From: an uncultured Heliobacteriaceae bacterium
Lineage (GTDB): Bacteria; Acidobacteriota; Blastocatellia; RBC074
Direction of reading: 5' to 3'
NCBI GenBank assembly: GCA_964468345.1
Contig: CAYXVZ010000035.1
Span: forward strand, 132 to 64,131
Length of the DNA stretch: 64,000 nucleotides
The notes below the pieces were generated by a model that saw nothing but the letters and a program-made list of their open reading frames with translations, searched no databases and was not told where the DNA came from. Position numbers and translations under genes: made by a program. Shown here piece after piece: positions 32,132 to 36,637 of this stretch. The stretch's first letter is position 1. Every line of letters begins with the position of its first letter.

Positions 32132-35100
32132 ATGCCATCCCATATCTTCATTTCGCACACCAGCAAAGACGATCCCTTCGTCAAGGAATTGCGCGAACAA
32201 CTCGCCGCGCACAAACTCAACGTCTGGGACGATGCGCGCAAGCTTCGCGGCAGCGCGCGGCTCGCCCCCGAAATCAGCGAAGCCATCGCCGCCGCGCGCC
32301 AGTTCATCGTCGTATTCAGCCAGAACGCGATTGATTCCGATTGGGTCTTCGATGAAATCAAACAGGCGCTGACCGTCGAGCAAGCGCGCAAGGGGGATGG
32401 ATACAGCATCATTCCGCTGCTGTTGCCCGATTTCAAACCGGCGATGTTGAAGCGCCTGTCGGTTTTCCCCGACGAACGTCTCGGCATCACCATTGCCGGC
32501 GGCGCGAACGGTTTGACGGATGCGATGCCGCAAATCCTGGCGGCGCTCGGCGAACGCGCCCCCGACCAGCCGACGCCCGCAATTGAGGCCGATGCACAGC
32601 CAATCGCCGAACTGATCCTCGAACTGCGCGACGGGCGCATCGAAACCCACGAAGGCAAAACGCGCGTCAAGGCCACGGCGACGCTGGTGTATGAACCGGC
32701 GGACAAGTCGCGCTCCGTCAAAAGCCAGCGCTTTTATTTCACTGCGCCGCTCGGCCCCATCGAAGCTGACGAGTTGCGCTGGTATCTCGAAGAGTATCAC
32801 CGCTGGCCCGCCGGACTCTTTCAGGAACGCGCCGCCCGCGTAGAAGCGCAATTGCCGCAATGGGGCGCGATGCTGTACGAAGCCGCGCTCGACCACCAGG
32901 CCGCGCAAGAGCCGCTGCTCGCGTGGCGGCAGGTCGCCGAATTGCACGAACGCCGTTTCTCGGTGCTGGTCGAACACGACCTGCCAACGGGCGCGAGCCT
33001 GGAGGAACAAGCCGCCGCGAACGAAGCCGCTTCGGCGTTGTTGACCCTGCCGTGGGAATTGTTGCGCGATCAGTTCGGCTGGTTGTTTCAAGGCAAGCAT
33101 GCCGTGCGCGTGCGCCGCACCCTGCCCAATCGCCGCGCCGCGCGCGAAGCCAAAGCGCGCTTGCCGATTCGCATCCTGCTGGTCAGTCCGCGCCCCGAAG
33201 ACAAAATGGCCGGGTACATTGACCATCGCATCAGCGCCAGGCCTTTGATCGAAGCCCTCAACGAACTCGGCGGACTCGCTGAATTGACCTTGCTCGAACC
33301 GCCGACCTTTCCCGCGTTGCAGGAGGCCTTGCGCCGCGCAACAAAAGACGACCGGCCTTTTGACGTAATCCATTTTGACGGCCACGGCGTTTATCACCGC
33401 GAACAGGGGTTGGGAAAACTCTGTTTTGAAAAAGCCGAAGACAGCCATTTGCTCAACGAGCGCGGGACACAATTGATTGATGCCGAGACCTTGGCCGGGC
33501 CCTTGCGCGATCACCGCATCCCGCTCGTCTTTCTCGAAGCCTGTCAGAGCGCGCAAGCCGAAAGCGATCCGACCGCTTCGGTGGCCGCGCGCCTGTTGAC
33601 CGAAGGCGTCACCTCCGTCGTAGCCATGTCGCACAGCGTCCTGGTTGAAACGGCGCGTCGTTTCGTCACGGCCTTTTACCGCGAACTCGCCGCCGGCGCG
33701 CGCGTAGGCCGCGCCATGCTCGTCGGGCAGCAAACCTTGCACGCCGATGACTTTCGTTTGCGCATCGCGGGCGCGGGCGAATTGCGTTTGCAGGACTGGT
33801 TCGTGCCCGTGCTTTATCAGGAAGAGCACGACCTGCAACTTGTCACCCGACTGCCCGGCCAGGCCGTGCGCGAGGTCGCCGCGCGCGCCCGGCAATTCCG
33901 CCTGGGCGAAGTGCCCGCGCCGCCGCCGCACAGCTTCATCGGACGCAGCCGCGAATTGCTCATGCTCGAACGAATGTTATCCAACGCGGAAAGCCCGCGG
34001 GGAAGCGGGCTTTCCCAGTACGCCGTCATTCGCGGACGCGGCGGCGAAGGCAAGACGACGCTGGCGGCCGAACTGGCGCGCTGGCTGGTGCAAACGCAGC
34101 GTTACGCCCAGGCGGCGTTTGTCAGTCTCGAACAATACAGCGACGCGCGCGGCGTGCTGGATGCGCTGGGCCGCCAGGTGCTGCCGTCTTATTCCGTGGC
34201 GGAATTCAAAGACCTCAAGGCCGCGCTGCAACCAGTCGCCCAGGCCCTGTGCGACCGCCGCACGGTCATCGTGATTGATAACGTCGAGAGCGTCTTGCCG
34301 GAACGTTCATCCACGAAGTCACACGAAGGGGCACGAAGAAGAGGAGAAACAACGCAAGACGTGAAGGAAATCCCGGCAACTCAAGCCAGTGTCGAAGCTG
34401 CGAACGACCCGGAAAATCTTCGTGCCCCTTCGTGTGACTTCGTGGATGAAATTTTTTCCGTTTGCGCAAACCTGCTGGCCGTCACCGATCAAACGCGCAT
34501 GCTGTTCACTTCGCGGGAGTGGTTGCCCGCGCCCTTCGATCATCCGCAAGGCCGCGTCACGCTGGGCGCGCTCAGTCAGACCGACGCCGTCGAACTGGTC
34601 AGCCACGTCTTGCGTACCGAAGGGCTGGACCTGAAACACGACGCGGCGGGCAATACGCCGCAGGAGATCACCGAACTGGTCACGGCGGCGGCGGGCCATG
34701 CGCGCGCCCTGACCTTGCTGGCGCGCAGCCTCGCCTCGCGGGGCGCACGCGCTACAGCGGAGGAGTTACGCGAACTGATGGCGCGCCTCGACCGCGAACA
34801 TCCCGGCGATCGCGAAAATTCGCTTTACGCCAGCGTCGAACTCTCGCTGCGCCGCCTGCCGCCCGAACTGCGCGAACAAGCCAGAGTGCTGGCGGTTTTT
34901 CACGGCGGCGTGCAAGTTGGCGTGTTGCGAATGATGCTGGAAGCCGATGAAGCGATCGTGCAACGGCTGGCCGCCGGGCTGGTGGGCGTCGGCCTGGCGG
35001 AAGCGATGCCTTACGGCCACCTGCGGCTCGATCCGGCGCTGCCGAGTCTGTTGCTGGCCCAAATGGAAAAGACGGCGGCGGCGGAACTGCCCGCGCTCAT

Positions 35101-36637
35101 CGCGCGCTGGGCTGAGGCGATGCGGGCGCTGACGGGCTTTCTCTCTCAGCAACGATTTCAGGATGCGCAACTCGCACAGCAATTGGCGCTGCTGGAACTG
35201 CCCAATTTGCAGTCGCTGCTGGCCTGGGCGGCTGGGGCGCTGCCGCCGGAAGAGGTGGTGAATTTAGCGAACTGTCTGGAGACGCTGCTCGCCAACTTGG
35301 GTCGCCCGCAGGCGCTGGCGCAGGCCGTCAGCGTGCGCACGGCGGCTGCGCGGCGGTTGGGCGCGTGGAGCCACGCGCAATATTTGAACGCGAGCGGCAA
35401 TATTGACCGGCTGCTCGACGAGGGCGATTTGCAATCGGCTTACGCGGCGGCGGGGCAATTGCTCGAACGCTGTCTGAGCGAGGGCGCGGCGGCTTACCCT
35501 GGCGCGGATTACGACATCGCGATAGCGCATTTCAGGCTTGGGCGGGTGCTGAATACGGTTGGGGCCGCCGAGCAGGCGGTCGCGCCGCTGGGGGAAGCGC
35601 GGCAGCGGTTTCAGGCGCTGGCCGATGCGGGCAACACCGGCGCCGCGCGGATGGCTTCCACCGCAATCACGGAAGGGGCGGATTGCCTGCTCTTTTTGGG
35701 GCGCTACGACGAGGCGGCCGCCGCGTATGAAGAAGCCATCCGGCGCGCTGAGGTACTCAGCAATCACCGGGGGGCCGCCGTCGCCAAAGGGCAACTCGGC
35801 ACGGTGCGGATGTACCAAAAACGCTACGCCGAGGCGCTGGAACGTCACGCCGAGGCGCTGAAGACCTTTGAAGCCCTGGGCGAGCCGGGCAATGTGGCTG
35901 GGAGCTGGCATCAGATCGGGATGGTTCACGAGATAGCCGGGCAGTTGGCCCAGGCCGAGCAGGCTTACCGGCAATCGTTGGCGATGCGGGTGCAGCACAA
36001 GCTCCGCGCGGACGAAGCTGCCAGCCTGAGTCAACTGGGCAATCTTTACGGTGCAATGGGGCGGCTGGAAGAGGCGACGACCTTTTACCGGCAGGCGGCG
36101 GAGATTTACGTTCAGTTGCAAGACCTGCGCTATGAAGGTTTCGTTCGCAACAATTTGGCCGGCACGCTGATCAAGCTGCAACGTTATGACGAAGCCCGCC
36201 GCGAATTGCGCCGCGCGATTGAATGCAAGCAGCCCTACGGCCACGCCGCCCAACCCTGGACGGCCTGGGGCATCCTGCACGATCTGGAACAGGCCACCGG
36301 CCACGCGCAGGCCGCCGCCGAAGCGCGCGCTCAGGCCGTGGCCGCCTATCTGGCCTACCGGCGCGTGGGCGGCGAGAGTCAAACCAACACCGCGCCGCTT
36401 TACGCGCTGGTCGCCGAAGCGTTGCGGCAAGGGACGACGACCGAGGCCGCCGCGCAACTCAACGCACTGTCGCAACAGAATCTCCCCGCGTGGGGACTGG
36501 CGTTACTCGACAAGCTGCACGCCATCCTGCGCGGCGAACGCCGGCCCGCGCTCGCCGCCGATCCGGCGTTGTTGTATTTGGATGCGGCGGAATTGACGCT
36601 GTTGCTGGAAGCGTTGCAGGATGAGGCGGCGGAATAA
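32132..36637 (+). CDS. TIR - CHAT (caspase-like) - STAND ATPase - TPR multidomain protein (bacterial NLR-like)
   Basis: [12 protein letters not shown] and [19 protein letters not shown] and FLEACQS. ATPase: [23 protein letters not shown]-terminal TPRs. Confidence 0.88.
34306..34450. mobile_element. Palindromic repeat element inserted in frame in the TIR-CHAT-STAND gene
   Basis: Perfect 34-bp inverted arms at 34306-34339 and 34417-34450. Same core as the intergenic copies at about 23907 and 57060. Confidence 0.8.

Follow-up and report, generated by a model that had tools for sequence, protein, structure and literature searches.

A single-chain TIR-CHAT-NB-ARC-TPR protein as a candidate NLR-like conflict sensor with two effector domains

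Background

When one polypeptide carries two different potentially lethal enzymes behind a single molecular switch, do the enzymes act in series, one activating the other, or side by side? This question is raised by a gene in a 64,000-nucleotide (nt) stretch of DNA, called here the window, from an uncultured bacterium that is titled Heliobacteriaceae and placed by GTDB in the Acidobacteriota (Blastocatellia; RBC074; assembly GCA_964468345.1, contig CAYXVZ010000035.1, positions 132 to 64,131 of the forward strand). The gene encodes a protein of 1501 amino acids (aa) that combines a TIR domain, a CHAT protease, a STAND ATPase module of the NB-ARC type and a TPR sensor. An earlier interpretation made from the letters of the window (the sequence-only reading) pictured a self-contained, inflammasome-like defence in which the CHAT protease may free or activate the TIR of its own chain. 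The account that we favour, with a confidence just past the even point, is that of a stand-alone NLR-like sensor for cell-death or abortive-infection conflict, in which the two effectors are parallel.

Gene and domain structure

The gene is one unbroken open reading frame (ORF) of 1501 codons plus a stop, as read from the window sequence. It is a single real gene for a large sensor protein, with four parts in one chain. Its features, all on the forward (+) strand, are as follows.

32132..36637 (+): whole ORF, encoding TIR, CHAT protease, NB-ARC STAND and TPR; alignments with homologues begin at residue 1-5 and run through to the C-terminus
32132..32554 (+): TIR domain, residues 1-141, from Pfam and fold match; codon of E75, the Glu at the catalytic position, at 32354-32356
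32555..32602 (+): proline-rich linker between TIR and protease, residues 142-157, of low identity and with no conserved basic residue
32594..33856 (+): two-lobed cysteine protease of the CHAT/separase type, residues 155-575; codons of H418 at 33383-33385 and of C471 at 33542-33544
33929..35041 (+): NB-ARC/AP-ATPase STAND module, residues ~600-970, from Pfam, Foldseek and the conserved K641 and D716
34034-34057 (+): Walker A, inside the NB-ARC module
34265-34282 (+): Walker B, inside the NB-ARC module
34307..34456 (+): residues 726-775, a low-complexity insertion that follows Walker B, peculiar to this protein and a few relatives
35042..36634 (+): residues ~971-1501, an arm built of helices only and the TPR sensor, ending in a conserved C-terminal tail; predicted local distance difference test score (pLDDT) >90

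Domains were assigned using Pfam profiles with their curated cut-offs. TIR_2 covers residues 5-107 (73.6 bits, cut-off 28, E 2.6e-20), CHAT covers residues 301-539 (76.7 bits, cut-off 24, E 2.8e-21), NB-ARC covers residues 630-718 (33.7 bits, cut-off 23.5, E 2.9e-8), and TPR_12 and related families cover residues 1162-1420 (102.7 bits, cut-off 30.1). Pfam NACHT stays below its cut-off on this protein (16.3 bits against 26.7), and NCBIfam HetF gives a weak match (4.8e-4), far under its cut-off. The TIR motif WVFDEI, at residue 71, contains E75; the role of the catalytic Glu in the W/CxxxE helix is known from SARM1 and from plant and bacterial TIRs. The catalytic dyad of the CHAT protease (clan CD, caspase-like), of the His-Gly and Ala-Cys kind, is found in the motifs HFDGHG at 414 (H418) and EACQS at 469 (C471), while Walker A, GRGGEGKT at 635 (K641), fits GxxxxGK[ST] and Walker B, VIVIDN at 712 (D716), fits hhhhD. 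On the TIR Glu, the CHAT dyad, the Walker motifs and the TPR sensor, the sequence-only reading was therefore correct, and the Pfam matches lie above the cut-offs.

The fold was modelled by AlphaFold2 in two parts: residues 1-620 (mean pLDDT 93, predicted template modelling score (pTM) 0.92, 89-row alignment) and residues 566-1501 (pLDDT 91.7, pTM 0.88, 77-row alignment). The sole disordered stretch of the models is the insert after Walker B (pLDDT <50 at model residues 162-199). Residues of the insert 726-775 are present in only 3 of 48 distant representatives, and the length of the insert among 154 homologues ranges from 21 to 124 aa, with a median of 33.

On structural alignment of the model, residues 155-575 match human separase 7nj1 (Z 21.8, 309 aligned residues, root mean square deviation (rmsd) 3.9 A), Csx29 chains (Z 19-21, including 20.9), SAVED-CHAT 8tl0 (Z 19.2, rmsd 1.8 A over 193 residues), gingipains R and K (Z ~18) and DdvA (8rot, Z 16.0). 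Since these residues align as one unit of the separase/Csx29 type, what appears as a spacer between the TIR and the Pfam CHAT match is an N-terminal pseudo-protease lobe (~158-300), followed by the active lobe (~301-565); a novel middle domain at residues 158-300 is thereby ruled out. The TIR (2-141) aligns with SPARTA TIR-APAZ and AbTir (Z ~16.5, rmsd 2.0-2.3 A, 133-135 residues). For the ATPase part, Foldseek returns the archaeal STAND-TPR protein 6mfv (6e-12), Apaf-1, CED-4 and ZAR1/plant resistosomes (among the structures of these last groups, 3sfz, 1z6t, 2a5y, 8jol, 6j5t and 9h2l), so that it has the NBD-helical-winged-helix fold of Apaf-1/CED-4, and the TPR repeats match those of LGN/Pins and kinesin light chain by both Foldseek and phmmer. 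For two copies of the protease module (158-565), complex prediction scored 0.38, 0.19 and 0.30, the mark being 0.42. By all the sequence and fold criteria tested, the protein is predicted to be an NB-ARC STAND with an enzymatic-type TIR and a CHAT protease.

Conservation of active sites

Two sets of relatives were used. The close set consists of 119 listed homologues (1384-1794 aa, 56-83% identical), nearly all of which span 93-100% of the query, the exception being P0079, where the best local alignment covers 48%; the TIR region is present in all 119 by alignment. The distant set consists of the query with 48 TIR-bearing and 17 TIR-less representatives, chosen from 150 listed rows by the rule that a row reaches the C-terminal part of the query. 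Most of them extend to residue >= 1470, P0143, P0211 and P0235 end at 1413-1432, and 85 fragments or shorter forms were left out.

In the TIR, 119/119 close homologues and 48/49 distant TIR-bearing proteins have the Glu of position E75. For the protease, H418 is kept in 118/119 close, 44/49 distant TIR-bearing and 16/17 distant TIR-less proteins, and C471 in 119/119, 44/49 and 15/17, respectively. The Walker residues K641 (118/119 close) and D716 (119/119 close) are kept in 49/49 TIR-bearing and 17/17 TIR-less proteins, that is, in 66/66 of the distant set. The sequence-only reading had made its case depend on the conservation of the catalytic residues in homologues; since E75, H418, C471, K641 and D716 are kept, in 118-119 of the 119 close homologues, it survives on this point.

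Mean identity to the query among the distant representatives is 36% for the TIR, 21% for the linker, 42% for the pseudo-protease lobe, 54% for the active lobe, 50% for the nucleotide-binding domain, 41% for ARC, 39% for the helical arm, 46% for the TPR and 37% for the tail. The TIR is thus the least conserved folded part and the linker the least conserved ordered segment, and the TPR sensor is as well conserved as the enzymes (46% versus 36-54%). Because the sensor is unusually well conserved, its ligand is probably a conserved molecule.

Independence of the two effectors

Among 65 full-length representatives, 17 have no TIR and begin with a Met of their own a few residues before the protease lobe. 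Conversely, seven TIR-bearing representatives have a degenerate His/Cys dyad, and all seven keep E75. By parsimony on a tree built from the region in common, 14 changes are needed to explain the TIR-less state and 8 to explain dyad degeneration; when only the strongly supported (starred) branches are considered, each state still requires at least 5. Because the two states are scattered over the tree, either effector seems able to work alone. An obligatory cascade is improbable, since relatives have repeatedly lost or inactivated one or the other effector while retaining its partner. These patterns argue against both an obligatory step in which CHAT cuts TIR and an obligatory step in which a TIR signal is passed to CHAT, and to judge from sequence comparison the effectors are most likely redundant or additive, parallel killing arms.

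The sites at which a self-cleavage could occur point in the same direction. The linker (about 16-17 residues) contains R142 in 15/49 proteins and shows no conserved basic or other motif, and in some homologues it has just 6-8 residues. PRxPRG-like motifs, in repeated form, are found in the disordered loop after Walker B in 7/154 members. As a conserved self-cleavage motif this candidate is ruled out, since it is absent from 147/154 members and from the protein of the window. The idea that the protease sets free or switches on the TIR of its own chain is therefore not borne out: no site is conserved in the linker, the dyad persists in members that lack the TIR, and the TIR Glu persists in members whose dyad has degenerated.

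One TIR-less example (L093; genome G028, contig C335, 1672-5697, reverse strand, with the upstream DNA to 6050) was checked in DNA. It is a more distant CHAT-STAND-TPR gene of 1341 aa with 39% identity, and the DNA upstream contains no TIR remnant, only a small overlapping ORF and then an HNH gene. The small ORF (~110 aa) has a stop codon that overlaps the start codon of the CHAT-STAND-TPR gene and a hydrophobic, transmembrane-like stretch; we take it to resemble the EACC1-type small partners of Kaur et al. The locus is flanked by PIN-domain and HNH genes. Unlike the family studied here, L093 may thus belong to a two-gene system in a conflict-type context.

Distribution of the family

A search with the whole protein found 2380 proteins at E <= 1e-3 among 8000 candidates scored, and PF13676 and PF12770 occur together in the listed homologue rows, as far as these were examined. 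Residues 1-620, compared with representatives of 50%-identity clusters, match 14,846 proteins at E <= 1e-3, 4,083 at <= 1e-10 and 743 at <= 1e-30. A search with the NB-ARC-TPR part recovers the same family; among its best 120 matches no other effector type replaces CHAT, and a few short matches (~850-920 aa) have neither TIR nor CHAT.

A degenerate-pattern scan of one genome per species yielded at least 599 stretches, of which at least 588, from genomes of many phyla, encode a relative. Across phyla, identity lies at 50-60%, the sensor included. Cultured hosts with an orthologue include Thiothrix fructosivorans, Leucothrix arctica, Acaryochloris marina and Paractinoplanes durhamensis. The best 80 of these relatives are 47-69% identical to the query, and their record titles include Acidobacteriota, Binatia, KSB1, Chloroflexota, Cyanobacteria (Acaryochloris, Nodosilinea), Thiotrichales (Thiothrix, Leucothrix, Parabeggiatoa), Electrothrix, Planctomycetota, Verrucomicrobiota, Actinomycetota (Paractinoplanes), Zixibacteria, Aminicenantes and others.

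On a 55-row tree (the query and 54 genes encoding >= 1380 aa from homologous loci), the phyla form clusters that are nevertheless interleaved, with strong (starred) support. For example, Actinomycetota lie within an Acidobacteriota clade, and Cyanobacteria group with Chloroflexota, KSB1 and Electrothrix. Note that copies L023, L024, L040, L042 and L043 come from metagenome-assembled genomes titled Enterobacteriaceae, Heliomicrobium or Nealsonbacteria. Four of these (L024, L040, L042, L043) are on the tree, in positions at odds with their labels, and L023, whose ORF call is split, was left off; the rows titled Heliomicrobium cluster closely with sequences of Acidobacteriota, and L040 (Nealsonbacteria) lies in a mixed clade. 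The three labels are probably binning or labelling errors and not the true host range.

Within the taxonomic family of the window, the gene is present in 24/87 genomes, a count that takes in the unpublished genome G064, and in 18/55 high-quality ones; in other species of the genus it is found in 0/3. In an even sample of the phylum, with three candidates scored per genome, 1/400 other genomes has it. This patchy presence, together with the mixing of phyla, fits an accessory gene that spreads horizontally.

The 10.35-Mb source genome (G000) contains two intact copies of the gene and one shortened copy. The additional copies are as follows.

L092 8328-12701, equal to G000:C15 ~62.3-66.7 kb (-): second intact copy, 1457 aa, ~50% identical
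L004 1495-2103, on G000:C198 (+): third, shortened copy, a 202-aa ORF

The second copy has Pfam matches to TIR_2, CHAT and TPR and keeps all the motifs (WVGMEL, HFDGHG, EACQT, GQGGEGKT, LLVVDNME). It sits in a housekeeping context, between alaS (alanyl-tRNA synthetase) and a YdjC-like gene. In the third copy the TIR is complete and is followed by the linker and the initial strand of the protease lobe, beyond which the sequence diverges and reaches a stop; downstream of it, the opposite strand carries two small ORFs without annotation.

Genomic context

The sequence-only reading had held that no substrate gene is adjacent and that the gene lies outside any defence island, and both statements stand. 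The ten neighbouring ORFs that were scanned encode an outer-membrane barrel, TPR proteins, an esterase, DUF1501/PSCyt2/PSD1 proteins, a sulfatase and a nucleoside hydrolase, and none of them has a PADLOC match other than generic TPR models. At 82 homologous loci, no flanking protein cluster occurs in more than 12 and none at a fixed position, no Pfam family occurs in more than three of the 141 immediate neighbours, and the strands of the neighbours look random (upstream 40+/38-, downstream 29+/34-). One cluster, found directly downstream in 10/82 loci, was considered as a partner and ruled out: it is the C-terminal TPR part of genes split by the ORF caller. As far as the immediate neighbours show, which is the range that the defence-island scan covered within the 10-kb flanks, this is a stand-alone gene outside defence islands.

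The borders of the gene carry two further features.

32122..32127 (+): Shine-Dalgarno-like AGGAGA, 4 nt 5' of the ATG, read from the sequence
36653..36674 (+): hairpin with a T run after it, weakly resembling a terminator, from a consensus scan that as a whole does not exceed shuffle expectation

A 230-bp spacer separates the gene from a divergently transcribed esterase gene. The GC content of the gene is 0.644, compared with 0.575 for the window, and at third codon positions (GC3) it is 0.753, within the range of its neighbours (0.62-0.78). Since GC3 is ordinary for the neighbourhood, the higher GC content of the gene results from amino-acid composition, and a recent horizontal arrival read from composition is ruled out.

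Downstream, the ORF at 36838-38484 (+, ~548 aa) has a signal-peptide-like start and no Pfam or PADLOC match, and it is not conserved beside homologues. On the opposite strand, 38983-43368 (-) encodes a DUF1501 protein and then a PSCyt1-PSCyt2-PSD1 protein, and a sulfatase gene (43413-44819) is next. Such DUF1501/PSCyt pairs are typical of Planctomycetota and Acidobacteriota genomes and appear unrelated to the TIR-CHAT gene.

Proposed mechanism and alternatives

Judging from its sequence and models, the protein is a self-contained, NLR-like receptor with a monocistronic gene, a STAND NTPase from the NB-ARC (AP-ATPase) branch. A role in defence we infer by analogy, and the following mechanism is drawn from Apaf-1/CED-4, plant TIR-NLRs, bacterial Avs and enzymatic TIRs. 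A ligand bound to the TPR arm would lift autoinhibition, whereupon the NB-ARC module would bind or exchange ATP and oligomerise, and the crowded N-termini would be switched on by proximity. The TIRs would pair into a composite NAD+-cleaving site, giving NAD+ depletion or ADP-ribose-derived products, and the activated CHAT protease would cut cellular or possibly invader proteins. The outcome would be growth arrest or cell death, as part of an abortive-infection-like or other conflict response.

Several observations weigh against this account. The gene has no island association, unlike most validated anti-phage STANDs; among the 141 immediate neighbours, the top PADLOC model occurs in four, and the models concerned are generic ATPase or kinase models. 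No Avs or AVAST model is found among the 17 PADLOC matches of the protein at E <= 0.1, and because of this absence of an Avs/AVAST hidden Markov model match we do not file the protein as an Avs member; the PADLOC 'TIR-NLR' model matches the TIR only (E 0.0075). The TPR sensor is not fast-evolving (46% identity against 36% for the TIR), which is atypical for an arms-race receptor, and such slow evolution suits an endogenous ligand equally well. As to the independence of the effectors, the tree used to count changes is a quick maximum-likelihood tree with many open or weak forks. The TIR-less and dyad-degenerate forms are mostly metagenome protein calls, one of which was checked in DNA, and some could be pseudogenes or have mis-called starts. 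Finally, among the 23 runs in 9 studies that match the stretch or part of it (9 of these runs contain at least half of its words), none listed is RNA.

The alternative that survives best, though we think it unlikely, is that the protein is not anti-phage at all and instead regulates programmed cell death, differentiation or stress signalling in response to an endogenous ligand, with CHAT as a specific processing protease, like HetF or separase, and TIR as a metabolic or signalling module. Sensor conservation on a par with that of the enzymes would suit this role, as would the position of both intact copies amid housekeeping genes (esterase and DUF1501 in one case, alaS and YdjC in the other) and the lack of a defence-island signal among the immediate neighbours. 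The weak HetF match, far below cut-off, points the same way, and so does the large number of filamentous or multicellular record titles (Thiothrix, Leucothrix, Beggiatoa, Electrothrix, Nodosilinea, Anaerolineae), the latter being an impression only. However, the presence of the gene is patchy within both genus and family and its tree mixes phyla, as expected of an accessory, transferable gene; its copies decay, as the shortened one on contig C198 shows; and the combination of TIR, protease and STAND is a conflict-system signature in those parts of the literature that were available.

Somewhat more doubtful is a coupled TIR-CHAT module under NLR control, in which a TIR-made nucleotide gates the protease or the protease processes the TIR, and the TPR arm senses a conserved host danger signal or a universal feature of invaders. 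If true, a TIR nucleotide that gates the protease would represent a fused, ancestor-like form of TIR-to-caspase signalling, and the whole would be a one-chain 'resistosome plus inflammasome' spread horizontally over more than 10 phyla.

A specific version of such coupling, less likely still, is a fused, NLR-gated type IV Thoeris, where an ADP-ribose-derived nucleotide made by the TIR allosterically activates the protease, in cis or between protomers, and the protease is the executioner. The TIR and the protease are indeed tightly coupled in hundreds of genomes, and the available parts of two reports describe N7-cyclic ADP-ribose (N7-cADPR) from a bacterial TIR as the activator of a caspase-like protease (10.1101/2024.10.24.620036; 10.64898/2025.12.03.692087). 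Against this, the dyad is intact in 15-16/17 TIR-less relatives, so the protease needs no TIR in cis; residues 155-575 are filled by the two-lobed fold, which leaves no separate nucleotide-sensor domain between TIR and protease; and the STAND module already supplies activation.

The least probable alternative is the self-processing, inflammasome-like cascade, in which the oligomerised CHAT cleaves its own chain and frees the TIR as the true killer: the fixed order of both domains in one chain, their compact packing in the model (pTM 0.92), the PRxPRG-like motifs of a few members and, in the accessible literature, the role of CHATs as specific activating proteases (Craspase/Csx30, SAVED-CHAT/PCaspase) would favour it, but the short, variable linker has no conserved P1-type residue (R142 in 15/49), those motifs are missing from this protein and nearly all its relatives, all dyad-degenerate members keep the TIR Glu, and TIR-less members keep the dyad (C471 in 15/17).

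Comparison with known systems

The parallel-effector account can be set against systems whose action is understood. The Apaf-1/CED-4 apoptosome and the plant TIR-NLR (TNL) resistosomes have the same NB-ARC fold. In the apoptosome, oligomerisation activates a caspase-type protease, and in TNLs it assembles TIR NADase sites. In the protein described here both outputs are found in one chain, the protease is fused and not recruited through CARD and belongs to the CHAT/separase type, not to the caspases proper, and the sensor is TPR instead of WD40 or LRR.

Bacterial all-in-one NLRs (Avs/AVAST, bacterial NLRs and bacterial Apaf-1-like proteins) share the plan of effector, STAND and repeat sensor in a single gene. 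The present family differs from them in having two tandem enzymatic effectors and not one, a TPR and not a WD40 sensor, no defence-island context and unusually high conservation across phyla. According to the accessible parts of the respective reports, TIR and CHAT are frequent N-terminal domains of NLRs in multicellular bacteria (Dyrka et al., 10.1101/2020.01.06.895854), a 2026 census of 589 STAND clades includes bacterial Apaf-1 orthologues with fused caspase-like proteases (PMC13581612), and Kaur et al. 2021 mention STAND proteins with TIR and caspase effectors. We found no main text that describes or tests a TIR-CHAT-NB-ARC-TPR family, although supplementary tables (Table S1 of Dyrka et al., Tables 2-5 of PMC13581612) may list the clade; Kaur et al. 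2020 (PMC7159879) contains none of six wordings that would denote a TIR/caspase co-fusion.

Type IV Thoeris likewise kills cells by pairing a TIR enzyme with a caspase-like protease, the TIR being linked to the protease ThsE via N7-cADPR in the available part of its description (10.1101/2024.10.24.620036). It is an operon of two adjacent genes whose products communicate through a diffusible nucleotide, and both STAND and TPR are absent, whereas here a single chain under NLR-type control is encoded by one ORF with no conserved partner gene. Note that PADLOC 2.0 predates type IV Thoeris.

Csx29/Craspase, SAVED-CHAT, separase and the anti-sigma factor DdvA have the same two-lobed fold and His/Cys dyad. 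Their regulators are the gRAMP complex, a SAVED sensor of cyclic oligoadenylate or securin, in place of a STAND ATPase. In addition, the CHATs of type III CRISPR systems, separase and DdvA each cleave one dedicated partner that is encoded nearby, whereas no conserved partner gene is found here.

The target protein of a diversity-generating retroelement (DGR) in Thiohalocapsa PB-PSB1 also carries CHAT and TIR in one polypeptide, and these are read as conflict effectors in the part of the report that could be consulted (PMC10907252). Its sensor is a C-type lectin hypermutated by the DGR, and its genomic context is that of a Trypco2/ternary system; the protein of the window has a conserved TPR sensor behind NB-ARC and no DGR.

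Implications

Bacterial NLR-like STANDs with one N-terminal effector are known, as is TIR-to-caspase signalling by two genes. What is new is the presence of both in one chain behind a switch of the Apaf-1 type, outside defence islands and with a conserved sensor. Since the family lies outside defence islands, discovery pipelines based on such islands would skip it, and so would a systematic survey of TIRs, which, in the accessible part of its account, discarded Avs-type and stand-alone TIR proteins.

If the family proves to act by ordinary abortive infection, it would still add a large clade to the catalogue, and its importance would rise if the effectors prove to be coupled or the ligand to be derived from the host. 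The family allows the redundancy or coupling of two death effectors to be studied in a natural experiment, offers a conserved sensor whose ligand should be tractable, and would provide a direct bacterial analogue of the logic of plant TNLs and the animal apoptosome.

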